64,000 nt of DNA. Source: an uncultured Planctomycetales bacterium (GTDB lineage Bacteria > Omnitrophota > Gorgyraeia > Zapsychrales > JANLHA01). Positions 2 through 24,000 of this stretch are shown here, piece by piece. The notes below the pieces were generated by a model, which saw only the letters and a program-made list of their open reading frames with translations, searched no databases and was not told the origin of the DNA. A program made the position numbers and the translations under genes. Every line of letters begins with the position of its first letter. Position 1 is the first letter of the stretch. The stretch covers positions 30,195-94,194 of the forward strand of contig CAZQQI010000004.1 of assembly GCA_964595465.1 (NCBI GenBank). The letters run 5' to 3'.

Positions 2-3000
2 ATACTCGGTGCTGTGAGTGCGTTTATACTGAGTCTGATCGGATTCAGCATAGCCATTCGTGCGCCGAATACCTCTATTAAACCGACAATCAAACAAAAT
101 GTGAAGAACCCGGTTCGACGTGTTCTTGGTGAATCCAAGCGTGCGTTTGACCGGGTTTCTTCATTATTCAGCAAAGGAGGAGCAAAATGGTACTTATCAA
201 CACGCACAGAGAATTGGAATTCAAGTACTTCCTGGAAATTCCTCAAAGCCGCTGCACGTTCTGTTCAGGCCGGGATGAAGAAGGGCGCACACGTCTTTAC
301 CTCATCTTCCGTGATCAGGAACGGGTCTATCAGCGCAACGGGATCAAAGGAACCTGGGACGAGATCGCCAGCAGCGCGGAACGCCGGCAGATCCACTCCG
401 TCTACAGCCAAGCGCTCAGCAGTAACCGCGTCCCGCACTTCAAGAGTAACCGGTTCCATTCGATTCTTAATTAGTGCGGCGGTTATTCTCGGCACAGCAG
501 AAACGGCCCAGGCCGCTTCGACCGAAAGCATTGTTTCTGCTGTGCCGGCCTGGATCCTGCCGGCGCTGGGATTCAGTATGATCGTGATGATCAGTGCTGT
601 TTTGATAGGGAAATTGATCAAGACAGCTAAAGAGCACGAAGCACAGCAGAATTATGAAGAAATCACCTCTGATGATCTGATCGAAGAGTGGACAGAACTT
701 GATATTCTTTCAGCGCGGGAATCAGCAGCTCGTGGGTTGGAGGTGGTTGGATTAGGCGCGGCAGCAGAATTGGTCCGCCGGGGTGAAGTGGATGCTGATT
801 ATAACGCTCAGCGCTACGACGCGTATGTCGGCCGGTTAATCGCACAAGCTATGTTTCATGACGAGCATGTACAGGAATGGATGACCGGCAAAAATATTTT
901 AATTAAGTTGACTGGCCGGACACGTTACCGTTTCTACAGCCGGGCGGTGAGAGGCGCGTTTGCTGAACCGGATGATGCCAAGAAAGAATATGGCGAAGAC
1001 CTGAGCGAGATAAAATTAACCGAACGCAGCATTAAAGAAGATATTAGAGAAGCCGCCCGGAAAGCATGGGCGCAGATAACTGGAGAAGGTGCAGGAGGTG
1101 TCGAGCGGTTAACCATACTTAAAGAAAACGCCGCTCAGCGCAGAAAAACTGAAAATATTGCAAAAGGTTTACGCAAACTGAGCAAAGCCGCCGTTTATAT
1201 CATTTTGGCATTGATCGGGCTGGCAGTATTTAACGCGATGACTGCACCGGCTATGGCACAGACAATCTCCGCCGATACGCAGGAAGCATCGCTCAATACG
1301 TCATCAATCTCCAGCGGACAAGCAGCCTCATCCTGGCTGCAACCTGAAAAGCTGCGCCTGCCGTCCAGTGATGATGTCCTGGTCGGACTGAATGTCCGCG
1401 ATTCAGGCTGGGATGATATGCGCATTATGATGGCGCAGGAAAAATCAGGTGAAATTTATGGCGCCCTTAAAAAGTCTGGCCGGCTGCAATTATGGCACGA
1501 GGCCCTGGTGAACCGCCAGGCCGCGTCTTCCGGGGAGGTCGTGATCGGGGTCACCGGACATATTATCGCTCAGGATCCGGTCATTGACGGTCAGCATGTG
1601 GCATTGGGTCAGAAGATCGAGATCGCTAAGGGCATATACGCGCGCGTGTATGCGCCGCAGATGTTCCTGGCCTATGAAAATGAAGAGGATGCGATCGTGG
1701 CGGTTACGGCCGGCGGACGTCATTTCGTGATCCCGGCTGACCTGAGACAAGAGATCGTGGCGAAGCGTTCCGGCAGTGAGACTGATTGGGTTGCCATTCC
1801 ACAGCGGGATGATAAGACCAAACGCGTGATTATCAGAGAGCGTACCATCAGAGAATTGAACGGGCGTCTGCCTAAGCATCGCATTAATGGGCACGACGGT
1901 CTGCGCGGCGGAGCCGTCATGGTCTTGAGCGCCCGGGCCCAACGCCAGGACCGGTTTGCCTTTAATAAACTCTCCGGCCAGCTTCTGCGTGAAGCCGCTA
2001 AGGAGATCGGTACCGGGTATTATGATACCCAACTGCTGAATATGTACCGCACACTCACTTATATGTTCGAACGTGAAGCCGGCTTGACCGAATCTCTGGC
2101 CTACCGTTACTTCGAAGAAGGTGAAGTGATCGGGGCCAGTTATGTTGGAAACGTCGATCGTTTCAAGGCTGACATTCCGTATGACAAGGTCTACAGCCCG
2201 TATTCCGGCCAGGTCACGAAGGTGGAGCGCACAGGGTTCGGTATTCGTATCGAGATCGAGGGGGCGCCCAAGGTAATTACTGGATTAGAGGCGACGATCA
2301 TTAGAGAAGGCGAGATCGTCAAAGCTGGTGAACTGATCGGTCTGGATCGCGACAAAGCGCCGGCAGAGGAACGCTTGGTAAGTATTAAAGAACAGATTGA
2401 AGAAACGCAGGATGAGGCGGCGAAAGTAAATAAGGCCATTGAGCGTGCCGAACGGGATAGAGAGCAGAAGGAAAAGATACTGAAGAGCCTTGAAGATCGT
2501 GAAAAGGCCGGTGAGAGCGCCGTGGCCCAGGCCCGCCGTGAACAGGCGGCACAGATGTCCGGTTGGAGTATCGCGGGCATTAATATTGACCAGTATCAGG
2601 CTGACCCGAAAGTTGTGGCGGAACATCTTAAGATGCTGATTAACGGCACGGTCAGCCCGTATCAGGTGGAAACGGGATTGAAGCTGACCCTGGGTATTTC
2701 CACCAATGGCAATCTGCCGCTGGGCAATATCCCGGGCATGAGCTTTGGCATGAACGGGTTCGGAACCAACATCAGCGGTGCCGGCGCGACGCAGGGCCCG
2801 GCTGATACGCTCAATCTGATGTTCGGTGATGCGCTTTACGAAGGCGGCAATGCTATGGCCGGCAAGGCGCTGGCATGGCTGTATGCCATGAAGTACGCGA
2901 CACAGATCTGGAATTCGATCGCCACTGAGATCCACCATGGTGATGAGCAGCGGGGCATGATCATTATGCCGCATACCAATGAAATGCTGATGCTGCTTCC

Positions 3001-6000
3001 GCTGGATTATACCGAACATCTGGTGGTTCAGCGCGACCTGCAGAAGAAAGACGGTAAGTATGTCTTTACCGAAAAGGATAAAGAATATATCACCCTGAAG
3101 TCGAACTGGACCCGTATTATCGAAGATGTCCTGAGCACTTTGTCACTCAGTCCGCCGGAGAAGACCCTGCTGGAAGAATATATGACCAATCATCCGATCT
3201 ATGTACCGGGCGACCGTGAACGCCTTTTCTGGCTGGAAGGAGTCAATCAGCCGGTTGATTCGGATTATCAATATATCTCAATGCGGGGTATGAGTAAGCA
3301 TCAAATGCGCGAACGTCTGGCCCGGATGCGTAAGGCCCGGAATAATCTACAGACCCGCATCGATGATGCGGCTTTACGTGAAAGTTATCGAAATTTTTAT
3401 AAATCCGCGATCCCGTATCTTGAAAAAATGCTGGCCCAGGCCTCTGCGGACGGATATAAACCGCAGGAATTTTTGCACGGTTACCGTTATAACAAACGGA
3501 CCGGGCAGCTGGAAGAGCGCATGCGGATCCGTATGTTCATTGAAGATGAGAACGGCAAGCCGGTTATTCAGCAGTGGTTGTCTAATGATGATGAGGGTGC
3601 AGCCTACCGTATGCAGCCCGGCACAGCCTTCTTTATTCCGTCTATCGCGCGCGTGACACATAATCTGCCGGAAGTCCAGGCTGGATTGTATGGCAAGGGC
3701 ATGAGTTATGACCCGGCAAAAGGAATTTTCAGCCGTTATGACAATCCTTACAACAATGTCTTTCCGGCCACCCGTCCGGTTTTGAAATTGATGAGCAGCG
3801 GGACCACCTTTGATCTGTTTTCTTCTCTGGCCCAGGCGCGGGCCCTGCCGCAGGCCGTGGGTAAGAATCTTGACGGGTCTTATGCTGAATCTCTATTTAT
3901 CCCGGGTATGGATCTGATCATTGTTTCTTACTGGTTTAATAATGAGATCGTTCCGGAAGGCTCGCAGAATGCCGGTATCAGACCGGCACAGGTTACTGGA
4001 CATTTGATCCCGTTCAAGTTGGCGCAGGGCGGCGGTCAGGGTCAGCCGCGGATTTATGATCAGGCGCCGACATTAGCTTTTACCAGCCGTCTTTCGCAGC
4101 GGGATTGGAGCGTTATCCGCTATCCGGTTGATAAGGATGGCAACCGTATCCCGGTCATGATCCGCACGGTGGATCCGCGCACGGGTGCGGTTTATAAACG
4201 TCCTCTGCCGGAAGGCGTGAAGGTGGTTAAGCGCGCCGGCGACCGCCTGGGTAAAGACCAGTTCGCCTTCTGGGTGGAGCGTCCGCAGAGTATTCCGCGC
4301 GAGATGCATCTGGTGGGTGATGAGGTTCGGTTTATTTCTTCACCGCAGGAATCCGCGATGTATGGAGAGCTGGCGCCGGCACGCACAAAAGAAGACGAAC
4401 GCCGTGTTGTGAAGCTTACCTGGAAGCTTGATGAGAAAATGATCTGGGAGAACATCCTGCATGACAGCGGTGATGACCAACTTAAGCACACTCGCCTGCT
4501 GATCGGCGAAGGGCGCGCGATCGGTTTGGCGGTCCTCGGTGCTAATGCCGAGCCGTTGGATGATAACGAGAGCTACACAGCCGCTGTGAAGCCGGACGGC
4601 ACCATTGTCCGCTATGATGATGCTAACGATCAGCCTGTGACACAGAAGATCGTAATCCCGGTCCTGGAGAAGGCCGATGTGAACGCGCTGGTCACCTTCC
4701 TGCGTAAATATCAGTATCAGCGTATGGATCTGAACACTGTCCGCCGCATGCTGACGGATAAAGATTTTCCGGCTGAATGGAAAGGTGTCTTCCAGATATT
4801 TTCCAATGATGCCCAGAAAGCACTGGATAAGGTTCAAGCAACACAGGCGGCTTTTGAAGCGCAGGTACGCATCAAAGACCGCATTATGCAGATGATCAAA
4901 TCGTCTTATGCCGAAGAAGGCGATCTTATGCGTCAGCGCGCGCAGGCGGTTTTCGGTATCTTTAAAGACATGACCGAGATCGAGGTGGAGATGGTTTCCG
5001 GTATGTTGATGATGAAATACCTCAAGGAGATCGCGATCGAGAATAATATGAGCCTTGATCAGCTGATCGAACAGCTTGAGGAGCGCGGCGACCTGCGAGA
5101 TCAGATCATGAAGCTTCTGCATGACCGGTTTACGCCGACGCATCTTTTCGGGCGCGGGGCCGCGCAGGACAACCAGAGCAAGCTTCGTCAGACAGAAGAA
5201 GGCATTCAGCACTTCCGCAACTTTACTCCGAAGACCAGTACCGCATTCAGCGCATACGAGCTCGGCGGAACGACTGTTGCCGGAAGAACAGTGACTTTTG
5301 ATGAGGCCATCGCGTGGAATAAAGGGCAGATCAACACCTTTAAAGAAGACTATAAAACGGATCTGATAAATTTGATGAACAGTGATGATGCAGATGACAA
5401 CCTGCTGCGTTCACAGGAAGAATTAGCAGAATCTCATGACTGGCTGACCACAGAAAGCATCCAAATGCGTCAAGCCATGTCTGACATCGCCCATCAGCAG
5501 AATATTTACGGAGGCTATGTCAAGGCCGCTGATTTTATCGGACAGTGGTATGACAATGCGGCCTATTGGCAGGGCGCTTATGATATCAGTGATTTTCATG
5601 TCCGTCAGGAACAGTGGACCTGGAAGAATGGCGAGCTCATTAAACATCGTCCCTGGTATCATGAACATCAATTAGAAGATATTGACCGCTGGATCGCTGG
5701 ATATAAGCGCAACATTTCTCTCCTGCAGATCGCCGATACAACACGGGTCGAGAGTTTTGAAGGGCTCTGGATCCGTCCGATCCAGAGCAAGACCGTTTAT
5801 ACGGTAAGTGACGCGCAGAAAGAGGCGGACCGCTTGCGCGAGGAAGTTCGCTCCCTGCCGTTTGCATTTAAGGATATACAGAATATCACGGATGAAGCCC
5901 GCGCGGTCTATCAGAAATATACTGATCAGGTTCTGCCGCTGCAGAAGGCCTACGCGGATCTGCTGGCGAAAGACGCGGCCGCGGACGCGTTATTCCAGGG

Positions 6001-9000
6001 CAACAATCCGAATAAAGAGACAGTGGAAGACATCCGCGCGCGTAAGTTGAAACTCTTCCAGGCAGAAAAGGCTTGGCGTGAGGCGCGTCAGACTGTTCTG
6101 GCAGAGCTGGATCAGGTTGGGCAGGGTTATTATCTGGATGAACGCACACGCCGCATTCTGGACTTTGAGCGTGAATTGGCGCTGACTGCTGCCAAAAATT
6201 TCTTTGACCGCCGCGGTCTTGGCGCTAACCCGCACGGTGCTATGTTAGAGAACATGAAGAAGTTCGCCAGTTATAACTGGCCGCTGCGTGACATTGCTAA
6301 TCGCATTTCTGATCTGCGCCGGGCGTCCGACAATGCTGAGAAAGATATTGCGCGTGCGCATCAGGCAGTTGTTCACGCTCAGCAGCAGTTCGATGATTTG
6401 GTGACTAATTTTGGCCGTTCATTCATCGACCATTTGGACGAGCATTACGAAGGCGTGGTCCTCTCCCAGAAAGACCGTAATTATATTGCTTATCAGCTGG
6501 CCCGGATGCAGCGCGGACCTCCGCGGATCAAATATATGAATGGTCAATTGTACTTAGACGGCCGTCGTGTTGACGCGGCCGGCACGATCAGTCAGGGTCG
6601 ATTTACCGAGATCTCTTCTTCTGATTTTCGCAACGGCGAGATGTCCGCGCATATGACCGCCTGGATGGATCCGGAACACGGCCGCAATGTCTATATTATG
6701 AATGCTCAGCCGAATGCCGAGGGCATGGGCGGACATCAGCTGATGCTGCTTGAGGTTAATCTGACGCCGGAAGAAGCCAGGAATTTTACACATCATTTCG
6801 CGATCGGAGGCGGGCAGTGGTCCCGCACCGAACAGCAGGGTGCGTTTGACGAAGAGGGCGAGACCGTGACTGAACGGTACGCCTTGATCCTGGATACATT
6901 AGCGTGGCGCAATGATAAATTTTCTTTGAATGTGGTCGGGTTCGGTAAGATCTCAGCATCAAAGAACGGTACACATGTCGGTGGTCTTCAGGGTACGCTA
7001 GAATACAAGATCAACGAAAAGGCGCGTTTGATCGTGGAAGGCGGATTCGCGGCATCTAGCCGAAAAGAGACCTATAGTGTTTTCGATCCTGCCACACAGG
7101 CCTATAAGCCGTGGACCCTGCGCGGGAGCGATAACTATAATTATCAGAAGATCACACTGGATCATGTCCTGACCGAAAAAGGCGGTCTGCGCGGTCAGAT
7201 CTCGCTCATGCGTGTGCAGGAAGGCAGCTTTGCCCGTAAGATCAAGGGAAACACCAGTATCTTCCCGTCTATGGGGCTTACCTATAGTCCGAAAGACGCA
7301 GCCAAGCGTCAGGCCGAGGCTAAGTTGGCTGAGCTTAAAGAAGACGGTGTGACCGATCCGTTTGAATTGCAGGCAGCGTATCAGAAGACCTATAATGAGA
7401 CCCTGGCGCAGTTTAAACTCCCGGTTGAGGTCGCTTTTGAACAGGCCCTTGGGTTCAACATGACTAACATTGAGGCGCGTTACAAGAATGTCTGGATGCG
7501 GGCGCGTCACCTGGACGGCACCTGGACTTATGGCGCGGGCGCGCGGATCATCGACCGTGAGCAGGTCAAGATGGATGTCAGTGTGTCGGTTGACGCTCTC
7601 GGCACACCTGTGGTGAATCTGGCGACATCCGCCCAGCCTTTTGACGGTGTCGAATTCAGCGCTTCGTTGGGCAATAAAGATCCGCTGGTCAGCGCCACGA
7701 TCGATATCTTTAAACTGGCTAAAGTATTGGCAGTGAATGAAGAGACCGAAGCGGCTGCGGCCGTGACCCTGAGAGATCTCTCCCGGACTCAGATCATGGT
7801 GGGTCTGGATCTGGCCGGTGTGGTCGATGCTGACGCGCGACAGATCGTCAATATTATTATGCAGATCCGCAGCGACAAAGACTTCATGAAGACCAATCCG
7901 GGTTTTGATCAGATCCTGGCCCATGAGAAATTCAAATCTCATCAAGACCTGAAGAACATCCTAGATAAACGCATGGTTGTCAGCAAGCTTGCTTGGACTA
8001 AGACCGTTACGGAAGAATTCGTTGCTTATGAAAAAGCGGATATTGATCCTTTCCTGGCCCTGGCCCTTGCACCTCAGCCGTTCGATCAGCCCAAGCCGTA
8101 TGATGTCAATGTTTACCTGAATGAGAACTTGTGGCAGACCAGATATGCTGTTCTTGAGACGGACGCCGGGGATCTCAATACGAGCGTTGTCGGGCTCAGG
8201 AAGCGCATCGCTCATGAATTAAAGATCGCGAACAATAAAGATTATTTCGGCTATGCCCGCTTGCTCGGCCGCTTGAGCCAGGGGCTGACGATGGAAGAAT
8301 ACAGCGTGGCTGTGACGGTCGAGAAGGCGTATGAAGAATACAACGAGAACGGCATGATCCGGTTCGCTCCGGGCAGCGGGTATTACTTCCGTATGCCGTA
8401 CCGTGGTGAGATTATCGAGATCCCGATGGGTGACGGGAAAGGCCTGGTCATCGTTCCTGAGTTAGCTGAAAAATATAATCTGCGTGAAGAATTGCGTAGC
8501 CCGTATCCGATCCCGGTCGAAGCGAAGCTGAATATGCTTAGATTGATCGAACAGGCTTACGAGGGGGATGGGTACTATGTGGTGCCGGGCGAAGGGCTTT
8601 ATCAGATTACCGACAATCAGCTTGATCTGCACCCGGATGCCACAGACATTCCGGCTGAGGCGATCATCGTCCGCAGTGAACAGGGCATTGCAGCAACGGC
8701 AAACCATTTTGCTCTGATCGTACCCAACAGCCAGGGAGAATGGGTCAAGATTTTTGCAACGGAGGCCGAGATGGTCAACTTGCTGAATGACAGGACCTAT
8801 GGATTAGATTATTACCTGTTGACAGAAAAGGACCAAGACGGTGAACCTATTCGCATGCTGGCTGTCCCGGCTGAGGAAGGCATGTCCGGTGCCAAAGAAA
8901 CCATTGACGGCCGCTGGGTGATCGGTGTCGGATATATGAACAGAGAATTGAACGACCGCCTGGATAGCGAGACTGAAGAATTCAACGCCGGGACACTGGA

Positions 9001-12000
9001 GAAGGATGGCGAACCGGTGGTCATGCGCCTGAACCGTCCGAATGTCACGGCAGACACCTTAGCAACATCGCTGACCCGTGAAGAAGCCGAGCAAATGATT
9101 ATAGATAACATGGCGACTGAAGAGTCAGAGCTGAACGCGCCGCACTTTGTCCTGCGTCATCTGAAGGACAACCTTATGGATGCCTTCCCTTATTATCAGG
9201 ATATCGATGGTGACCAGGAATATGATCCGCAAACCGATGCATTCAGCAAGGGTGACCCGCGTTTCTATGAATCCCAGCCGAATGAATCTTCGCGCGGTGA
9301 CCAGTGGCAGCCGCTGAAGACCTTCGGTATCTATGATCCGCAGACCGATACATTTTACACCTTTGATTTTGCCGGCGAAGACGGGCGTATCGGATACGCT
9401 GCGATGTCTGATATCTTAGCGCCGTATTCGTCTGTTGTCGTGAATGAAGCCGGTCAATCCGTTTATAAAACCACGGAAGGGCTGGACGCGCTTATAAGCG
9501 AAAACATCCTGAGATGGGCTAAAGAGACAGAGGGCGGGCGCACGCGTTATATCTTAGAAAGCCCCTATTCACCGGTTGGGTTATCGCGTGACTTGCGCGA
9601 TCAGTTCGAAAACATTCTTGAGCAGGGTCATTGGCTGGTCCTTAAAGAAGACACCGTTATTCCGTCCAGCGTGGATCCGCAGAAATTGATTGCGGTGACC
9701 TCTAGATTCGAAGCGCTGCTGGAAGGTTCCCTTGAGGATAAAATTGAAATCGTCCGAATGGATGCGGACGGATATGTGACAGCCCATGTCTACCTTGATT
9801 ACAATCCTCAGAAATCACGGATCGGAGTTGTCGATAGCGCCGTTGAGCGTATCTACAACTTGGCGGATTATATCGAATCCCCGGCCGATGTGCAACCTGT
9901 CGCTGATGCGACGACGTTGGATGAGCTGACCTATAGCGACATGAGCGATGTTCCGGAATTGACCCTTCAGCGTTTCCACAAGATTATGGATGCTGTACAG
10001 CGGTTGGGTGAGGATCTGAAATACGTTAAGATCCGTGATCTGGATGTGACGCGCTATTTTGATGGACCGTATTATACGATTGAAGTCTTTGAAGAAGGCG
10101 CCAGCGATCCGATCGTCAGTATTCGCCCGCTGCAGGAAGAGATCGTTTGGTTTGACGCCGAGGGGAACGAACGCTACACCACTGATCTGTACGGCGAAGA
10201 GGGCGTCCGGGTCAAAATTGGGGATCGCTTCGAAGAGAATGTCACCGGCGTCTTCGAATTTCATGAAGACGAAGACACCGGGTTATACGTTAGTTTGCGT
10301 GAGACAGAAGAAAATCCATCGTACACGACCATGAAACGTACCCATACTAATGGTGCCATACAGCGAGAAGAGGTTGCCACTGTAAAGAGAAATGACGTGA
10401 TCAATATCCTCAACACCGGTCAATCGTTACAGAACATCGCTGAGGGAGCGGACTTCACCTATGCCGATGATTATGTTTACGACAATGAGCATAAATTGGC
10501 CGAACGCCGTATTGGCGTTCATGATCAACACGCATGGACCATCTATCCGCAGGTTCAGGATGGGCCGGTTGAAGGTATTACGGAAAAACTGCTGGCCTTA
10601 AGCGATGTCGGTCAGAGCTGGGGTCAATTTAATATTACTTCTGATATGGAATGGGAGATCGCCAAAACCGTACGGGTTTTCGGCAACAATTACAAAGTTG
10701 AGACCTATGACTACCGTATTCCTAATGATCCTTTAGAGCGAATCTTTTTAACGATTAGGATGGAGAATGGTCAGCTGATCGAAATGATTGCCGGATTGGC
10801 ATTTGATCAGCGTACCGGGGATCAGATCCGTTCATCTGTCCTGGAGATGAACTACGACGAAAAAGCCCAATTTGATTATCTTGAAGAAGATGAACGGGAG
10901 CAGTTGGATATTATTGACAACGCTGGACAGCTGTTTGATGCAGAAAAGATCGAGACCCTTATGGGCGCGATGGCCAGACGGTTCCCGGAAGCCGTCAAGA
11001 TTGATCGTGCAGGACGCCTGACCCGGTTCTTTGATATTATCGGGCAGGAAGATGAGATCCTGCCGGAAGACTATCCGCAGATCTTCTGGGGATTCATGCG
11101 CCGCATGGGAATTACCCCGGACACAGAATTTACGGTCTTGCGTGAGCGGGCCCGCCTCTGGACCGGTGATGGATATTCTGATCAGTATTTCGCCCGGCCG
11201 AAATTGCATTACCTGATCCCCAATGACAGCCGCGGGCGGGATGCTGTGGTGGTCTATCCCAACGGCGATATGACCCTGAACTTGTGGTGGCTGGAGGGTG
11301 AAGAAAATGTCCATGTTATAAACGGCGGTCCGCGTTATTACGATATGCCGACCGGGGTTCTTCCGGGTATGATCACGATCGATGCAGACAATGAGCTGAA
11401 GCAGGTCGGCATATACCGTGCTCCGGCTCAGGGTGAAGCTGAATTCGATATTACCTTATATGAGCGCGAGAATGGCCGTCCGCTGGAAGGCGCTGACCCG
11501 ATTGTGGATGTCCATGCTGGCGGCGGACAGATGTTCCAGACAGCGTTTTATAATGAAGACGGCTCCAAGGATGTGTTCATCGGTCATGAATATGAGATTA
11601 TGGACGCGGAATTCAAACGCAGCGCCATCTATACGGCCGGTGGTCAGCTTCTGGCTGAGAAGTATTCCCATGTCACGGTTCAGATCGTCAAAGAGCTGTT
11701 GGGTGTTGGAACCAATGGGGAAGAAACGATTGTCTTTGATCCGCGCCAACCATACCGCTATCCGATCCAGGCTTACATGAGGAATGCCGAAGGAGAGAAT
11801 CTTGCGGACGGCACCATCGTTAAGACCTTTGTTCACCAGGACAGCATGATGGATTTTAGCGCTGATCCTATAAAAGCCGATGTGGGTGCTCAGAAGAGTG
11901 AATTTGTGGTTTATGAATCTGAGGGCGTGGCGCCGCAAACAATCAATGCTCAAAAGTATACCTATATTGATGACGAGCTTCAGGAAAAGACCCGCTGGCA

Positions 12001-15000
12001 GCTGGGTAAGGATTATTTAGAAGCATTGCCGTGGAAGACGGCGATCTTCCTGCTGATGCTGTATCTGGCTATCAATTTCGGCTTCGGCAAGATCATTGAA
12101 ATTTTCAAGACAGCAGGACGAAAAACCGGTTTCGGATTGTCTCGTCTGATAGCTGTCTTTGGACGGAAACATAAAAAGGAACGTGCTGACTCAGCAGATG
12201 AGGGTCAGGAAAGAATTGAAGATATGGTTAAAGAGATGGAAGCCTTCATCGATGCTCTTCCGGCATACGGATTTCAAGCGGGTTCAGCTGAAAAGACAAA
12301 AGAGAATCTCAAAGACGAACTGCGCAGCCTATTGAAGGCCGGGGTCAGCAAAGAAGATATCGTGAAAAATCAGTTTAGATTGTTTGTTAAAGTGTGGTTT
12401 GTGCCGGTCATGGCCCGCAAAGCCTGGATGGGAGAATATCAGCAGAGCGATATATCGGATCGCGGGTTATGGGTAAGGGTCAAACGCTTCTTGCGCATTG
12501 ACCGAAAGGTCAAAAAATATGCCCTGGGTCATAATTATGAAGAAGTCGAAGAACGGGCCAATGAGATCCTTTCTAAGGTGGGCTATCAGCTCGAGAATGG
12601 CAAGGCAAACATGGTCTATGACAAGACGCAGTGGAAAGAATATATCCGTCACATGTATATTTACGATATGGTCAACCGCTCCAGCGGAAGACTCTCGAAT
12701 GTAACCATGACCGACGCGTACTTCTTTTATCGCGCCCTGCAGAGTATGGGCCATGATCCGCTGTTCGGTAGAAAGCTGGAAGAGCGTCACTTGGATCTGT
12801 GGGATAAGGTTGTCCTGGCACACAATAAAGCGATCAAAGCTCACACCAAGCACGGGGCTGCACATCATGATGATATCAGCGGCTATTTCCGCACGCCGGG
12901 ATATATCCGTTGGTATGAACAGCAGGATGAGACCGGATTGACCGGACGTGATCGTGTGGAAATCGAGCTCATGAAAGCCGATCTGTTGGAGCAGACCCTT
13001 AAAGCCAACGAAGTTCTGCCTAAGTTGTATTCTGATGTTAAGACCACGATGTATGGATTTGCCGGCTGGATCCGCATCCTGCGGAATTTTAACCGTCCGA
13101 TCAGCGCCATCATCAGTGTCGTGATCCTCTCATCATATGGGATGATGTTTACCTATCAGCCGAGTCTGCTGGGAGCCTTAGGAACAAGCAACATCGCCTG
13201 GCCGGCGTTGATCGCCTGGCTGCCGTGGGCCGCATTGGCTTTTGCGGTTTTACTGGGTGTTAACATTGTAATCCGATTGTTGGATGAGCACTTTAAGGCC
13301 CGCAACACTCTGGAGGATTTCGGTTATGGGGAAAGCGTGGCAGAGTCGGCTTATGATGACAAGGCGCCGAAGGGCACGCGCGGCCGCAAAATACGGGCTA
13401 CGATATCGACAATAGTGGTCCTGGCATCCAAATTGATATTTAACCTCTATATTATGAAATGGATTGGCGGTGCTCTGCTCATCATCGGGACCAGCACGTG
13501 GTCAGTTCCGTTTGCAACGTTTATTATTGTGGGAATTCCGTTCGCGGTGCTCTTTGCATTCAGCTCGTGGGAGTGGTCGAACCGCACAACGGCAGAAAGG
13601 GTCCGCACAGCCTTGGCAAAAACGATCGGGCTGAGCGGAACTCTGCTTATTGCAGCGGCTTATTTCTTCGGATTCCACAGCTGGGTCGGGTTGTTATTAG
13701 CGGTTCCGTTTGTGGCCATGATGAGCGTCATCCTGTTATTAGACGCGTATGCATACTGGTACCTTTGGGAAGGGAAGCTGGGCAACTGGATCGCCAAGTG
13801 GACAGGGGCGTACCGTGTCAGCGCCTGGAACATATCTGCTCCGCATCGCCTGCTACGCAATACAATGACCGCTGGTGTGGTGCTGTTATTCATGTTCATG
13901 GATCCGACAGGGACGCTTAGTGCGCTGGCCTTCGGTCATGGCATCTTATGGACGGCTGGATTATCGGCCATACTGATTGCTGGTATTTCCGTGCTGAACG
14001 TTATATTCTTCCGGTTCGGCATCGCCAAGATCGGCGGGGATTCGGCCGCTGATGTCTTCCCGCGGGCGATGGAACGGTTTGCTGTGCAGAACCTGCCTGC
14101 GACACCAGAATTGACAGCACTGGAGAAAGATCCGAAAAAACAGGTTGAGATTAATGGAATCGTCTTCCCGAGCCGCGAACATGCCGTGGCAACTGCCAAG
14201 GCCTGGAACAGCTTTATTGATCAGTATGTGACCGATGACCTTTCTACTGATGGAGATGATAAAGACAAGCAAGGCGAAGCCGATAAGCTGAAATTCAAAA
14301 TTGAAGGGATCGATGACGCAGATTTCTTTGCCGGTGAGGTTGTAGCAGCGCCGAATCTGCGCAAGGTCACTCCGGAAGTTAAACGTATCCGTTACCGCAT
14401 CCAGTTTTTCCTGGGCACCCTGCTCATGGATATGGAGCGCACACCGGTATGGGATCAGATGCAGATGCTTTCAACTGCCCTGCCGCATTTTGATGAGGTC
14501 TTGATCTATCCGTTCTCCATTAAGACCCGCGCGGATTATGACGGGATTAATTCCCCCTACCGTACCGGAGAAACTTTGCTGACCTACTTTATCAAGCGGC
14601 ATGGAGCCGAATGGCATAATTTTAAGACACGTATGAGAGAAAAATATGGCTCTGATCATCCGGATGTTAAAAGGTTAGATGAGTTTGATTATCAAAATGG
14701 AGAAATCCTCGGAACATATGACAGCCGTGATCAAGACTATCATCTGGAAAGTGAAGAGCTGGAACGCGAGGTCAGTCTGTGGGTTTCTTACCGTTATCAG
14801 CCGCTGTCTCGTAGCGTGCGCGGGATTATGCATCATCAGAAGATGTATGCGTTCTACGCTCGGGTAAATAATCCGAAGCTGAGTCAGGAAGAAGCTATGC
14901 AGAAGGCTCTGGAGAAATATGAATTCCTTCTTGGATTCCAGAAATATGGCGACTTTTTACCCAATTATGAAAAATATCTTGAAGCAATGGAAGATTGGAG

Positions 15001-18000
15001 GCGGGACACAACCAAAGATAAGCCCGAGAAAGATAAAAACATTATCTTGGTTGAGGACGCCAATTATCTCCTGCGTAAATATCCGGGTCTGAAAGGAGCC
15101 TACTTATCTGGTAAACCTTTTGGGGCCGTCTTTACTTACCGCAAAGAATTAAACGGGAAAGAGAAGAAGATCCTGTATGAATTTAAAGATGAACAAGGCG
15201 GATACATTGTCGAAATAGACCATATTGATCTGCCTGCCCATTACTTTGCCGGACAAGGGAAACCCGTCAACCAGAATCACCTTTACCGTTTCGTGCGCGG
15301 AGAAGTCGTTCAGATGATGGATATGAACCAGGATTTCTATCTGGAAGAAACCTTCAAGGCGCCGAATCTGATCGCTGAATTCCGCAAAAATGAGCGTCTG
15401 GTTATTATGGGGTATCCGGAAGATATTGTGACAGACGTCAGTTCACCGGCCGGTAGTGTCCACGCCTTTGGGGACCACACCTTCGCCACCCTGGTTCAGC
15501 GGGCATTGAACTGGAACGGGGTCCGCTTCCATTATGGACATCCGGACTTCGTCCGGGCTCGTAGTTTCCGTCAGCTGGGTCTGTTAAGTGCGCCGTGGGT
15601 CAACGAGGACATTTTCGGGGCTTATAAGGGAACGCTGTATGGTGAGGAAGTTTCCAACAGTGAGATCATGCAGGCAGCCAAAGGCCGTGAAGGTGTCTAT
15701 GAAGGCCTGCTGGGTATTTCGGATAAATTCGGCGCCGGCGCAGCAGAACAGGCCGTGACCCGTATGCTTTATCTGTTCAACCGTTCCGGCAAGATCGGTT
15801 TCGGCCGTGTCTTTGTTCACTTTATTGCCTCGATCGGCTACTTCCTGCGCAAGCCGTTGGTTGTTCTGCAGAACAATCTTTATATCCTGACCATCGTTTT
15901 GGGCGGTCTGAGCCTCTTTGCCGCATTTCCGGGTGAAGTCGTCTTCGGTCTTGTTGGTCTCATGCTGTCGCAGGCCATCACCATGACCGGATATATTCAG
16001 CTGATCAAAGAACACGGGTTCTTCAAAGGCACATGGAGATTTATGAAGGTCTTCCCGGTCGCAGCGTTATCTTATCAGGCTTTGATTTACGGTGCGTTTG
16101 CTCCGGGTGTCATCAAGGCGACCATTAATAATGCCGACTATGTCAAGACCGGACGTCGTCCGGGCCGTGAACACCGCACGCCGTTCCGCAAAGATGTCGG
16201 TTCAAGCGACCATATGGAACTCTATAAATATGTGGCCCTGGATGATAAGCCGGTATCAAAATACGGCAAGGTCGTTAACGGTTTTGTTAATGCCGCTTTA
16301 GGGATGATCCTCTGGCAGACCTGGGGCAGCATCTGGTCTCTGTTCCCGCTGATGATGATCTTCTCGTCCATGGTTGGCCCGTATATGCTGAATCCGGGTT
16401 CAACTCCGCTGACGGTTAGTTCCAAGACCTGGGTTAAGAATCATATCTTTGATATGAAACATGCTGCCTATAAAGCGGGTAAGAAATGGATCATCATTAC
16501 AGGTAGCTTTGCCGCCCTTTGGTTCGTTTTAGGCGGTCTGCCGTTCTTGCCGATCTTTGGGGTTATGACGGCGTACTGGGCGCTGGGATTCTTCCAGGAT
16601 CGTTCTGGCGAGGGGAATCGTGTTAAAAAGGTGCGTGATACGGTTGACGAATATGTCAGCATTACAGTGGTCATGAGTATTCTGACGGTGCTAGGAATTG
16701 CCGCTTTAGTTTACGCTGTGCCGCGTGATCTCATTAAAGGACGCATAGGTTGGATCAAGAAGATTTATAAAAACGGTGTCGGACAGAACGGACGGTTAAA
16801 GGAAACACAGGATGAGGGTAGCTATGGTCAAAAACAGGCAGAAACCAATCATTCGGCTGACGCACCAGGCGAGACAAAAGATAAGGGCCAGCAAAAGACG
16901 TCCGTTAAAGACGGTCAGGAACAGGATGCCGGCAGCCAAAAACAAAAGAATACAGATGTGTCTGATTCCGCTTCAAAAACTGCAAAAGAATTAAGCATTG
17001 GAACGTTGCAATCAATAAAGAGGGAATACAATCACAACGAAGATCAGATTGAAGTAGATAAAAAGGCCAAAAAATTGTGGAAATATCTGCTTGGTCATTC
17101 GCATGAGAAGATAAATGACGCGATTTCTCTTATAGCTCAGGCCGCAGAACTCGAGCAGGCGTTAGAGAAAGAAAAAGATAACGCTAAGAAGAACGCCTTG
17201 AAGAAAAAGATTTCGAATGTAGAAGGGCAACTGCTGCCCATTATCCCTGCCCTCGATCTGGCGACATTTGGGGTTCATCTGCAGGGGGAAGAAGAGCAGG
17301 CCGAAGCCAGTCAGGGCTTAAATGAACTTTTCAAGCGTCAACAGGATTTGATAAAGGAAAACAGAAAAGCTAAGAACCAGCAGTCAGCTGAGCGCAAAGC
17401 AGAAATTGAAGCGCAAATCACTCAAGCTCAGAATGAGTTGGCCAGAAAAGTCCCCGCTCTTACGACCCCGGTTATTACCTATTATTTAGAGAACGCAGCC
17501 GATATCCAAGAGGTGATAAAGGCCCTTGTCCAGCAGCATCAGATTTATTCCAACCAAAAATTCGAAAAGGCACTAAAGATCATCCAGAAAAGAAAACGGG
17601 ATGAATATCAAACAGTGACGTCAAGAGAAAAGCAAAAGATGTTCTCTGATATTTGGGAACAGGATATTAACGAAAATATTAAGAGTTTGTTGCATGCGCT
17701 GGTCGGAGAAAAGAACCAGGAGCGACAGGATGCAGGATCGTCTGCGGCTAAAGAATTGAAGAAGCGGCTGGATAAATCAGTAAAAATTCGTGCCGAGTTG
17801 TATATAGAGAAGCATGGTTACGACATCGAACTGCTTAAACAGCAGGCAATCAAGGCGGGAGTCGATGTCCCAAGCCGCGGGGAATGGATCTTCGCGAGAA
17901 TGCGTTCAGATTTACAGCAGGCTCTATTGGTTAAATATGATTTTGATCGGCAGGCTGTTTACCGCTCCATGATCAGTGAAGCGGAAATGCTGGCAGTACT

Positions 18001-21000
18001 GAGCCGCTTCCTTAACGCTCATGACAGTGAAGAAAGCCTCTATGAGGCAGATGATCTGGTTTTGGCCGGTAATGATGACTTGAAAACTTTTGAAGAAGCA
18101 CTGCGGTTATTTGAAGCAGGTGTGGGCCAGCGGATCGTGATCCTGGGCGGATACGGCCGTTTGACCCTGCCGCTGATCCAAAAAGCCGTGCAGGCCGGCT
18201 TCTCCATCAAGGTGGCTGATGATCGGATCATCAGTGACGGCCAACAGCTGGCCGAATTGATGGCGGAAGTCAATGATGAGAATATGTCGCAGATCATTAA
18301 CCGCAGTGAAGCGGATATGATCCGCCAGATTATGGTCCAGATGATAGGCGGGGATAATGAGATGCTCCGGAAGTTTAACGCAGCGGTCGTGCTTGAAGAA
18401 GATTCGGCCAATACGCGTCAGAATTTTGTGAATTACCGCCAAAAACTGATCGATGAGGACCGGCTGCAGGACGGGCAGTTATTCCGCGCCCTTTTCATTC
18501 AGACGCCGCACCAGCAGTTCCGCACACACGCCACTTTTAATAGTGTTTTCCAAGCTGAAATTGCCGCTGACAAAATAAAAGGCATCAGCCGCACCATTGA
18601 CCTGCGCATTCAGCCTACGGCAGAGTTCAGAAGTCTACTTATCGCAGAGCTAATTAAAATTATCGCCTATACCAAGAAAGGCGATATTCTGCCGGTCTAC
18701 AAGGACAAAGACGGTCTCCCCGCCATCCCGGCAAATATATGGAAAACAGGGGCCCAGCTCTTCACTGATCTTACTGCATCTGATCAAAATGACCTCGCTG
18801 TGGGCATGTTTCAGATCATCGAAGCGGCCGGCTTTAACAGAATCGACATCGTCTCTGAGAATGATCCTGATGCGGTAAAAGAATTTATATCAATAGTGAT
18901 AGCCCCGACGTTTATTAGAGAGATTCAGGAAGATATTCGCGCAGAGCGGCCGGCAATTACCGCACAGGAAGACGGCTACGACCTGCGCGTCAGCGATGTT
19001 CAGATCCCTGAGCAATACCAGCCGGCTGTCGAGGCTGCTCTGCGCAAGGCCCTGCAGGAAGGCGCGATCCTGATCAAGGCGGTTAATGCCGAAGGTCAGG
19101 AAATCATCATCCCGGCCGATCAGATCACCATCCGCTTCTCCAGTGTGCATTTTATCATCGATATCAAACAAGCCCTGACCAGCCTTCGCGTTGTAATGAA
19201 GGAAGAGAACGAGACCCCCGCGAAGCAGACGGAAGATACCCAAAACCCGCCCGCCGCCGCAGCCGAACCGCAAAAAGCTGAACCTGCCGCAGAAAAAATC
19301 GCTGACCAGAAAGAACCGGCGGCAGCAGAAAACGAAAATAAAGCAGCTGCTGAAAAGTCTGCAATACAGGAAAACGAAACGGCTCCGGCTGAAACTGCAA
19401 AACCATCTGAAGAACCCAAAGCCGCAGAAGTCAAACCTGTTGTTGAAACTCAACCAAGCCGGACAAGCCGCCTCCGCCGTTTTATTCGCCGTGTCGTGGG
19501 CATCTCTTCAATGCTGGCTATCGTTTCCTTGAGCGCCTATTCCGCGTTGTTCCTCCTTGCCAAATACAACGATCTGCCGGGAGTCAGCAAAGACATCACG
19601 GCAGCCTTTACAGCTTCAGCTGAAGAGTTTGTTTCTGCTGTCCCGGCCTGGATCCTGCCGGCGCTGGGATTCAGTATGATCGTGATGATCAGTGCTGTTT
19701 TGATAGGGAAATTGATCAAGACAGCTAAAGAGCACGAAGCACAGCAGAATTATGAAGAAATCACCTCTGATGATCTGATCGAAGAGTGGACAGAACTTGA
19801 TATTCTTTCAGCGCGGGAATCAGCAGCTCGTGGGTTGGAGGTGGTTGGATTAGGCGCGGCAGCAGAATTGGTCCGCCGGGGTGAAGTGGATGCTGATTAT
19901 AACGCTCAGCGCTACGACGCGTATGTCGGCCGGTTAATCGCACAAGCTATGTTTCATGACGAGCATGTACAGGAATGGATGACCGGCAAAAATATTTTAA
20001 TTAAGTTGACTGGCCGGACACGTTACCGTTTCTACAGCCGGGCGGTGAGAGGCGCGTTTGCTGAACCGGATGATGCCAAGAAAGAATATGGCGAAGACCT
20101 GAGCGAGATAAAATTAACCGAACGCAGCATTAAAGAAGATATTAGAGAAGCCGCCCGGAAAGCATGGGCGCAGATAACTGGAGAAGGTGCAGGAGGTGTC
20201 GAGCGGTTAACCATACTTAAAGAAAACGCCGCTCAGCGCAGAAAAACTGAAAATATTGCAAAAGGTTTACGCAAACTGAGTAAAGCTGCTGTCTATATCA
20301 TTGTGTTTTTAATCGGCTTGTCAGCACTCAACGCGATGACGGCACCGGTCATGGCGCAGACCATCTCTGCCGATCAGCAGGAAGCATCACTTCATGGGTT
20401 GCCGCAAGAAACCGGATTTGACATAGATGATATCCGTATGCCCTCCAGCGAAGATGTCTTGGTCGGCCTGGGAGCCCGGAATATTTCCCGGGAGGACATA
20501 CAGATTATGATGGCGCAGGAAAAATCTGCAGCGATTTACAAGGCATTGGAAAAGGCCGGCCAAGAGCATCTCTGGCACGAAGCCCTGGTGAATCGTCAGG
20601 AAGCGTCTTCAGGCCAGACCGTCATTGGTGTAACCGCGCATATTATTGCGCAGGATCCGGTCATAGACGGCAAACCTGTAATCCCTGCCCAGCGGATGGA
20701 GATTGCCGAAAACGTTTACGTGCGCGCACATGCACCGCAAATGTTTCTGGCTTATGAGAACGCTGACAATGAGATAGCAGCGATTACCGCTGGCGGGCGC
20801 CGTTTTGTGATCTCGCCTGAGTTGAGGGATGAGATCGCAGCTCAGGAAAATTTCAGTGATGATGATTGGGTCGTTATTCCTCAGCTCGATGATGACAGGA
20901 GCCGCATTATCATAATGAAACGCACCATCAGTGAATTGAGCGGGCGCCTGCCGCAGCAGCGTATCAACGGGTATGAAGGTCTGCGCGGCGGTGCGGTTAT

Positions 21001-24000
21001 GGTCATCAGCGCACAGACCAAGGGGCAGGATAAAAAGACTTTTCATGACCTTGCCGGCCAGCTTCTGCGGGAGGCCGCAGAAGTGATAGGTTCTGATTAT
21101 TATAAAACTCAGCTGCTTAACATTTACCGTGTTCCGACTTACCTTTTTGAGCGCGAGGCCGGACCGGCCGAATCTGTGGTGTATCGGTATTACGAAGAAG
21201 GCGAGGTCATGAGCGCCAGCTATGCAGGCACCATCAAAGGCATTGAGACGGATGTTGCGTATGAGCGGGTTTACAGCCCGTATTCCGGTAAAGTCGATAA
21301 GGTCGAGCGCACAGATTCCGGCATCCGCGTCATGATTAAGGGTGCCCCAAGAGCCATTATCGGTTTAGAGGCCACGATCATTCGTGAAGGCGACATTGTG
21401 ACGGCTGGCGAAATGGTCGGCCTGAATAACGTTCAGGTTCGCGCAGGTGGCCGTCTGCCGGCATCAGAAGAAGAGGTCGAAAGCGCACGTGAAGAGGTTG
21501 CCCAGAGAATAAAGGTAGATAGTCAGCGCGCCGCAAGTACACAGGTAAACCTTTCGCAGCAAGAAAAAGATGCATCTTCACCGAACCATCGCGCACCTCA
21601 GGATGAAAAGCAAAGACAGATTATAGAAAACAGGGCCGCCAATTTACGAACAGATGTGAGCGGAACAGAATACAGCGGCCAGCAGCAGGAGATAATGAGC
21701 GTTATCGAGCGGGCTCGTTTCCAAGTTCTGCATAACCGCTTATTTATTGATACCGAAGATGAGCCGGATCTGATCGTGGCCTCGATTGCGAAAGGCACTC
21801 TTTATAAAGAAGTCTATTCATTCAGTTCCCTGGATGACGTTCAGGATAAAAATTCTTTCATGTATTTTATCCGCAACAACCCCACTGCTACAGTGGAGAT
21901 TTATCAGGTGCCTGCAGACGTAGAACGTGGTGGTTTTGATATGTCCAGTATCCGGCAGGATCGATATCGTTTATCTACTATAGAGGAGATCGATAGAGCT
22001 ATCCAAAATGGAGAACATATCGTTGTTGTCGTGGAAGGAACGGTTGAAGATGAGCATTTTGAAGGAATATTATTCGCGGGCACAGAGGCAGCTCAAGATC
22101 GCAAAGAGCTGAATGACCGCGTCAGGGACCACCTTCTGCAGACGATACGGCTGCAGAAGGTGTTAGGTTCAGCCGAAGGCGGAGTTCTCACAATTGAACA
22201 GCAGCGGGCGGCAGTCCGGGCAAAATATCCTGCGAGTTTCGGAAATGCTGTCTTTAAAAACACATCTTTATTTGTGGCCGCCCAGGTTGGCACAGATAAC
22301 CGTGGATTTATTAGAAGTGTCCGGTCGCTGCTGACGAGCGGAAATTTTCATCGCCTTAATATTGACGGCGCGCAGTATCCTGCCATGACCATAAATGGTC
22401 AGACGTTTGTGCTGCGTTATTGGCCGTTTGATACCCATCATATAGTCAAACGCTACATTCCCATACCTGTTGAACTGAATGGTGAAGGCCGTGTTATTAA
22501 AGAAGAACGAGCGGCTGTGATCAGAGAATTAAAACGATCGTTAACCAGCGCGGACCAGGTGCGGGGGACGATCATTCTCGGAGAATATTTTTATCAGGCT
22601 GAAGGCGTTAAGAACGGCATCGGCAGGATCATGCTGGCCCGGGAACAGCAGGCGATGCAGGATCAAAAGGCCTATATGGATAAGAAGATCATATCTGAAC
22701 TCTTGTTCCTGCCGGCAAATTTTTATATCCAGAGTCCGGTTCCAGTCAGCACGCCAGGAAGCATCCTCTTCGATCTGATGTTTAAACCGGACAATGATCT
22801 GTATAGACCGTTGACCAATGAAGAAAAAACGCAGTTTTTGGCGCAGTATAGAACGCTTTATCGTGAGAATGTTTCCGCTCGTCTGGATGCTGATTCTACT
22901 TTGGATCTATGGCAGAAGAAATGGAACATGTTAAATAAGCAGGAGCAGGACCGGGCGCTTAGAGAAGCCGATATCCTGGTCAATGATCTACTCAGCGCCG
23001 ATGAGAGAGATCTGCTCGATGCCTTTAGTCAGCGCCGGCACAATGAAATGGAAGTCCTGACAGCCTTAAATTGGCTGTCGCAGGGAGCGCGTTTTGCCGG
23101 GGAGATCATGGAGCGCTATGACACCCGGCAGGTTGTTGTGCCGCGGGCGTTAGGTCCGGAGTCCGCTGTGTTTGACGCCCCCCGGCATCAGGCAGCTGTC
23201 GATATTTTGACACAAAAATATATTTCTTTCACCGGGGAATTAAATCTGATTTCGACATTGACCCTGGGAGAACATACCAGCATCGGAGTCAATACCGGTC
23301 AGAATATGAACTTTTTGGAGAGTTTGCTGCAGCTGGGTATTACTGTTGACCTTAAGTCGGTTATCAATCAGGGGGCCATAGCAGCAACAGGGGATCCTAC
23401 CAGCACACGCTTCGTTACCGCACCGACACGAACGCGGTTCAATCTTTATATCGGCGGATTTCCGCTATCTTTGGTGCTTGACCGGGTGTTGTTGGGTCAG
23501 GTTCTGGAGGCGCATCAGGATGAAGATATTTACGCGATCCAGATCAAGGACGGGTTTTTCTTCAGCGACCTTGAAACATATACCCGTGAGCAATTTGATG
23601 TTCTTACCAAAGCCGTCGCTGACGCAAGGGTTGTTGTAGGCAAGACAGAGGTCAATGTCGGAGGCCGCGTCAAGACAGTGGCGTTTTATCTTGTCGCCCG
23701 TCTAAAAGCTGATGGGAAACCAGAGCTGCAGGTCTTTATGTTGACACCGGCGGCTTATGAAGCTGAAGCACACAGGATCGATCGTGAAATCGCACAGTAT
23801 CAAGATTTTATCAGGTCTCAGCGGGAAGGCGGATATAGCGCCCGTTATGGCGCGAGAGGGGGCACCTATGCTCAGAATATCGCAACCGGCCTGTTGAAAT
23901 CTTATGATCAGCAGCGTCTGGCTGACTATCCGAATGCCTACACCTGGGACATGATGGTGGTGGCTGAACGGATGCTGAACGCGCATGATCGAGAGCGCGC

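Follow-up and report, generated by a model that had tools for sequence, protein, structure and literature searches.

Long modular genes in which stretches of sequence are homogenised by recombination have been described in the assembly-line polyketide synthases (PKSs), where 93% of the gene clusters contain tracts of intragenic conversion, 0.3-1.4 kb in length, whose limits tend to coincide with those of domains (Nivina et al. 2021, PMC8256042). The same work defines repeats named GRINS by a length of more than 500 bp with more than 80% identity to a region of the same gene, and by mean absolute GC and TA skews above 0.15 in windows of 150 nt. GRINS copies are 75-95% identical within the compared macrolide PKSs, with values of up to 98% in the chalcomycin synthase, and their two skews are correlated (0.70), are strongest at third codon positions and stand out against the remainder of the gene (PMC8256042). 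Giant multi-pass membrane proteins, the 'Archaeovorins', have been described in Omnitrophota (West-Roberts et al. 2023, 10.1101/2023.11.21.568195; see also 10.64898/2026.06.07.730766), most of them containing a divergent SecA DEAD helicase domain (10.1101/2023.11.21.568195). The repeats of these giant genes have been described as ancient, with their nucleotide similarity dissolved, and not as recent tandem expansions, in a scan covering tandem nucleotide repeats only (10.64898/2026.06.07.730766). In this work we focused on a stretch of 64,000 nt of contig CAZQQI010000004.1 (hereafter the window), which is read through by a single open reading frame (ORF), and on a 649-bp patch that this ORF contains twice, the two copies being identical at all but one base.

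An identity step within a diverged pair of modules

Positions given here are those of the whole window, and the residues of the ORF are numbered from base 2. When the window was compared with itself at the DNA level (blastn), 531..2347 matched 19629..21427 with an overall identity of 79.9%. At the protein level (blastp) the match joined aa 172-792 to aa 6538-7152, which defines a unit of about 620 aa, or about 1.86 kb, present twice (modules A and B). The overall identity is very unevenly distributed. As the sequence-only reading had claimed, 534..1182 and 19632..20280, 649 bp each, have a single difference on direct comparison, a G at base 544 for a C at base 19642. This mismatch is synonymous (GTG/GTC, Val) and is followed by an exact run of 638 bp (545..1182), the next mismatch being at position 1183; in the protein alignment the two copies are 100% identical from V178 on. 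The offset between them is 19,098 bp, that is 3 x 6,366 codons, and both are read in the same frame. The patch runs from 3 residues ahead of the hydrophobic core of a first transmembrane segment (TM1) to 2 codons ahead of a second one (TM2), and its content is exactly TM1 and the loop domain that follows it. According to our own arithmetic, an exact run of 638 bp at a per-site identity of 68-76% has a chance of about 0.76^638, or about 1e-76; the identity step is real and far beyond chance. The other long repeats revealed by the self-comparison of the window were limited to one pair at 78% and one tandem array.

The sequence on the right of the patch remains homologous between the modules, at a much lower identity. 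At fixed offset, identity was 76% in positions 1201-1300 and was then lost through insertions and deletions, while a codon-based alignment gave 68% nucleotide identity over 1,179 bases, with a longest identical run of 23 nt. Divergence was evaluated by the method of Nei and Gojobori on the 388 codons of this right flank. The proportion of synonymous differences (pS) was 0.63, the synonymous divergence (dS) 1.38 and the nonsynonymous divergence (dN) 0.26, resulting in a dN/dS of about 0.19. In five successive blocks of the flank, dS ranged from 1.16 to 1.91, which is saturated, and dN from about 0.24 to 0.31. The patch has one synonymous difference for about 150 synonymous sites, or a dS of about 0.007, roughly 200-fold below that of the right flank. 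Since dS is saturated in the flank and dN/dS is about 0.19, both copies of the module are old and have been under purifying selection. Constraint on the protein does not explain the patch, because its silent sites are identical too.

The left side is different. Nucleotide homology essentially ends there at about 515-531, so that the earlier description of adjacent homologous sequence falling to about 80% or less within 100 bp applies to the right side only. A protein alignment extended the similarity, weakly, by about 40 codons that include a hydrophobic segment and an SRTSR motif common to both copies; over 43 codons, pS was 0.74 and the proportion of nonsynonymous differences (pN) 0.56. Outside the patch, the right-hand homology is evident over about 1.2 kb, whereas that on the left is barely present. 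Both modules are preceded, at 2-520 and about 19400-19610 (+ strand), by low-complexity, basic linkers in which Ser, Thr, Arg and Lys abound and which contain SRTSR. The positions of the modules, the patch copies, the flanks and the domains of the ORF are listed in the Table.

Table. Features of the 64,000-nt window
Feature	Position	Strand	Description
Window ORF	2..64000	+	21,333 codons, uninterrupted by stops (six-frame stop count); continues past both ends of the window
Left flank	404..533	+	Basic Ser/Thr/Arg-rich linker and hydrophobic segment; weakly alignable with ~19520..19631
Module A	515..2377	+	aa 172-792; blastp self-comparison
Patch copy A	534..1182	+	aa 178-394; TM1 and predicted helical loop domain of ~190 aa
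Right flank of module A	1183..2377	+	Partner 20281..21457; old, diverged
FKS-type 1,3-beta-glucan synthase (PF02364)	14384..15910	+	E 6.7e-62, 210 bits, above curated cut-off; between modules A and B
Module B	19613..21457	+	aa 6538-7152; paralogue of module A
Patch copy B	19632..20280	+	Same frame, 6,366 codons downstream of copy A
PEP-utilising enzyme domains	~41492-42760	+	Pfam; PEP-utilizers_C E 7.9e-13
GH130 domain	~53189-53599	+	Pfam

Probable gene conversion and competing explanations

Recent intragenic gene conversion is the best explanation of the patch, and we consider it likely. A dS of about 0.007 in the patch compared with 1.2-1.9 in the flank, together with homology that extends clearly past the right edge and weakly past the left one, supports the recent gene conversion or homologous recombination suggested by the sequence-only reading. 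Because homology of lower identity continues around it, if only faintly on the left, the patch has the properties of a conversion tract lying in an older duplication and not those of an inserted element. The module of about 620 aa would have been duplicated long ago within the gene, its copies now being 6,366 codons apart, and under purifying selection both copies would have accumulated changes up to the saturation of their synonymous sites. Later, in a recent event of homologous recombination without reciprocal exchange, about 650 bp of one module would have been written over the other; alternatively, the source might have been a third copy located outside the window and written onto one or both modules. 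Such a conversion would have erased all differences in the tract, and the single synonymous difference would have arisen, or survived, since. Both the recombination mechanism and the copying from one module onto the other are what we infer from the sequence, and either module may have been the donor, as no outgroup homologue was found.

Several points weigh against this explanation. No homologue of the module was present in the searched collections that could serve as an outgroup, reveal an earlier divergence of the patch and tell the donor copy from the recipient. The left flank is too diverged to tell on which homology a RecA-type event would have been resolved on that side. In addition, a perfect 638-bp repeat is a feature that short-read assemblers handle badly, and the identity step is known from one assembled sequence alone.

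An artefact of assembly or polishing would imply that the two sites truly differ, or that only one of them exists, and that the assembler, a gap-filling step or the polisher copied one version or mis-threaded the repeat. The exact repeat is indeed longer than short-read k-mers and typical insert sizes, and collapsed multi-copy assembly has been noted for some contigs carrying giant genes of Omnitrophota (10.64898/2026.06.07.730766). However, between true sequences with an identity of about 70-75%, like that of the flanks, reads would not cross-map, and neither assembler nor polisher would homogenise them. The tract edges are sharp, the right one lying inside continuing homology, and the 18.4 kb between the copies are continuous and coding in one frame. 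A frame of 64 kb without stop or frameshift also points to a consensus of high quality. Moreover, a mis-join at a repeat leaves one copy and not two, and the sole other arrangement of the pieces, an in-frame deletion form lacking 19.1 kb plus a 19.1-kb circle, would itself be a product of recombination. An artefact is thus unlikely in our opinion. The related concern that a collapse of the repeat would undermine the single ORF was not borne out, the offset being 3 x 6,366, so that every join of the four flanks through the patch stays in frame.

The patch copies are direct, in-frame and perfect repeats over 638 bp, and as such constitute a substrate for unequal crossing-over of the RecA type. 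Recombination of this type needs a few tens of bp. A crossing-over between the two copies would result in the loss or the doubling of a segment of exactly 6,366 codons, in which the glucan-synthase block lies, with the frame kept. Cells with and without the 19.1-kb segment might coexist by such reciprocal recombination, in which case the contig would represent the long form only, the identity would be real and the length of the gene would vary in the population. The length of the exact repeat, well above the requirement for recombination, is in line with this possibility, but the latter leaves the origin of the identity unexplained and would supplement conversion without replacing it. We judge such heterogeneity to be improbable, to a greater degree than an artefact.

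Selection for the bases themselves (through an RNA embedded in the ORF, a regulatory element within it or an antisense gene), or a mobile cassette present in frame at both sites, would be a last way to account for the patch. The patch is somewhat purine-rich, at the 95th percentile among 649-bp stretches, and its skews formally lie above the numerical cut-off used for GRINS. On the other hand, the total lack of synonymous change over 638 bp beside a flank with saturated dS demands constraint on every base, and we find this kind of explanation hardly credible. Three specific candidates were rejected. A structured RNA was discarded as no Rfam family matched anywhere in the window, and a mobile cassette as homology continues past the right edge, with a weak trace of it past the left one, and no similar DNA or protein was found in plasmid, viral, genome and metagenome collections. 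An element with GRINS-like skew was also dismissed: the skews of the patch are uncorrelated, its third-position GC skew equals the average of the gene, and the gene is not a PKS.

Recent homogenisation does not seem to be restricted to the two modules. A tandem array at 60068-60661 (+ strand) is composed of six units of 33 aa (99 bp), AAEYFARSGLTLENAGEDVVAIWEMIARKAPQA, of which the inner four share about 93% identity, the outer two having diverged. Recent conversion or unequal crossing-over among the central units of an array would be expected to leave such a pattern, which is a second, independent sign of recent homogenisation in the same ORF.

The module and the giant gene that contains it

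Each module is composed, in this order, of a diverged basic linker with a hydrophobic segment, TM1, the loop domain, TM2 and a C-terminal domain of about 380 aa. The hydrophobic segments of TM1 and TM2 were located at aa 185-203 and 396-414 in module A, and at aa 6551-6569 and 6762-6780 in module B, and the right part of module B has 60-62% amino acid identity with that of module A. TM1 reads ILPALGFSMIVMISAVLIG and is directly followed by a first Lys/Arg cluster, KLIKTAK; a second cluster, RRKTENIAKGLRKLSK, directly precedes TM2, and the loop of about 190 aa between TM1 and TM2 is predicted to be helical. Because Lys/Arg clusters are present at both ends of the loop, this domain should, by the positive-inside rule, be cytoplasmic, and the C-terminal domain should lie outside the membrane. 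TM2 of module A has a signal-peptide-like end, AAVYIILALIGLAVFNAMTAPAMA/Q. In both modules (1187-1261 and 20285-20359, + strand) TM2 resembles an internal signal peptide with an AxA cleavage motif, ending with NAMTAPAMA/QTISAD in module A and NAMTAPVMA/QTISAD in module B, deep inside the giant polypeptide; it may act as a signal-anchor or as a processing site. The C-terminal domain closes with a weak barrel-sandwich or M23-like motif, for which the Pfam matches were all sub-threshold (Peptidase_M23, E 0.0017; RnfC_N, E 0.027).

Sequence searches in Pfam, NCBIfam and the PDB gave nothing above threshold that would indicate the function of the module, and AlphaFold2 models calculated on two-sequence alignments had confidence values (pLDDT) of 36 and 38 and were unusable. 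A hidden Markov model built from copies A and B detected no third copy in the window. Nor were homologues of the module detected in GTDB genomes, JGI metagenomes and an index of 5.8 billion proteins, in a HMMER scan of 1.84 billion representatives, in viral contigs and plasmids, or in the flanks of 18 related giant-gene loci.

The sequence-only reading had placed the patch in two super-modules. Repeats of 19 kb were not supported by the blastn, blastp and permissive blastp self-comparisons, none of which revealed homology on that scale; the shared unit is the module of about 620 aa only, and two smaller pairs are found elsewhere in the ORF. The first of these is a dispersed duplicate of about 140 aa, at 18881-19300 and 35633-36055 (+ strand), with 60-64% amino acid identity, 77.6% nucleotide identity and a dS of about 0.9. 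One of its copies lies about 330 bp upstream of module B; the pair has a highly conserved core, GYDLRVSDVQIPEQYQPAVEA…ITIRFSSVHFII, and matched no family. The second is an older duplicate of about 400 aa, at 39200-40411 and 42824-44035 (+ strand), with 35% amino acid identity and saturated dS. Its copies bracket the PEP-utilising domains, and close to the start of each lies a helix of very high hydrophobicity (aa 13129-13147 and 14327-14345).

The reading frame of the ORF is well supported, as the remaining five frames contain between 480 and 1,552 stops each, and codon periodicity favours the frame of the ORF in 209 of 212 windows of 600 bp. Positions 1-600 are among the exceptions (score 0.73 vs 0.79), a dip which is consistent with an unusual composition and not with a change of frame. 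An antisense ORF of 429 aa was noted at 33014-34303 (- strand), within a region rich in TM segments. The minus-strand frame with the longest open stretch (480 codons) has 480 stops, compared with 933 and 1,075 in the other two; since stops are scarce across that whole frame, the antisense ORF probably results from codon usage and does not represent a gene. The predicted protein contains about 80 strongly hydrophobic 19-mers, arranged in clusters. In addition to the domains listed in the Table, Pfam detected HEAT_2 (E 5.2e-15) and several TPR families. A profile built from 14 related loci found no second glucan-synthase block in the window.

These 14 loci were obtained by scanning GTDB with the glucan-synthase block. 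The five best relatives named to phylum were metagenome-assembled genomes (MAGs) of Omnitrophota, with 57, 52, 51, 44 and 44% identity, and more distant ones were labelled Endomicrobia or Planctomycetia. The domain is kept at 30-57% identity in giant ORFs of MAGs with these three labels (L001-L018). For 9 of the 14 loci, the whole stretch that was fetched, up to 22 kb, was a single open frame, and in the others the longest open frame had 2,470-6,079 codons. Metagenome contigs scanned with the glucan-synthase alignment yielded no closer relative of the whole gene, the best having 51% identity. The window is most likely part of a giant gene of Omnitrophota coding for a multi-pass membrane protein of more than 21,333 aa, the phylum being assigned through one domain only; the window is devoid of marker genes.

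The order of blocks varies among the related ORFs. In L001, L005 and L009, a homologue of aa 7516-8969, which follows module B in the window, is located upstream of a homologue of aa 3399-5573, the glucan-synthase block, and in L001 (872-12682) these two blocks directly adjoin each other. Colinearity with the window is kept in L002, L004 and L011, where aa ~2230-2570 are followed by 3376-5600. The differing orders suggest that blocks are shuffled within such genes.

Comparison with known systems

The window ORF resembles the Archaeovorins in its scale of tens of thousands of codons, its many TM segments and its TPR, HEAT and PEP-utilising (PPDK-type) domains, and the nearest relatives of its best-conserved domain are found in giant ORFs of Omnitrophota. 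It differs from most of them in that SecA_DEAD was not found by Pfam in the 21,333 aa of the window, the gene continuing past both ends. It also carries a glucan-synthase domain, which is mentioned neither in 10.1101/2023.11.21.568195 nor in 10.64898/2026.06.07.730766. With respect to the ancient repeats reported in the latter work, the patch represents a recent homogenisation of dispersed copies, a category that falls outside a scan for tandem repeats. It is a small counter-example to the view that the repeats of the giant genes of Omnitrophota are old, and gives a hint that recombination is still shaping them.

A tract about 200-fold younger than the duplication in which it lies would mean that homologous recombination still acts inside the giant gene, and perfect in-frame repeats could lengthen or shorten the protein by about 6,400 residues in a single step. 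Both bear on the origin and maintenance of genes with tens of thousands of codons, which is an open question. More speculatively, recombination between dispersed in-frame modules could be a general way by which giant genes of this type grow, shrink and are reshuffled. In that case the patch would be a fresh trace of this process, the gene would be polymorphic for a block of 6,366 codons including the glucan-synthase unit, and the block orders of the related ORFs would be older outcomes. We put this forward as a tentative idea, with doubts outweighing confidence. In practical terms, the patch points to a site at which the assembly of giant genes is liable to error. We regard the finding as a useful data point and not as a surprise.

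Among other homogenised genes, the spidroins of spider silk (PMC3933166) resemble the array of 33-aa units, in that recombination maintains near-identity among the repeats of a single long ORF. They are, however, eukaryotic tandem arrays, whereas the patch belongs to a bacterial gene and its two copies are dispersed, at a distance of 19 kb.

A close parallel is provided by the PKS genes and their GRINS, with which the window shares a very long modular ORF, a tract of high identity between otherwise diverged modules, and tract edges near domain borders. In length and identity (649 bp at 99.8%) the patch falls within the definition of GRINS, and its identity is above the figures given for them in PMC8256042. 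Its skews, 0.22 and 0.17-0.18, exceed 0.15, but 10% of all stretches of this length in the window do so too. The correlation between GC and TA skew is r = 0.07 and 0.02 in the two copies, and the third-position GC skew is 0.129 both in the patch and in the whole ORF. Unlike in the PKS genes, the modules are present in two copies only, and Pfam scans of the whole window ORF found no domain of a PKS or of a non-ribosomal peptide synthetase. Gene conversion is in itself a textbook mechanism; the class of giant gene in which the patch is found is a different one, and much less understood than the PKSs.

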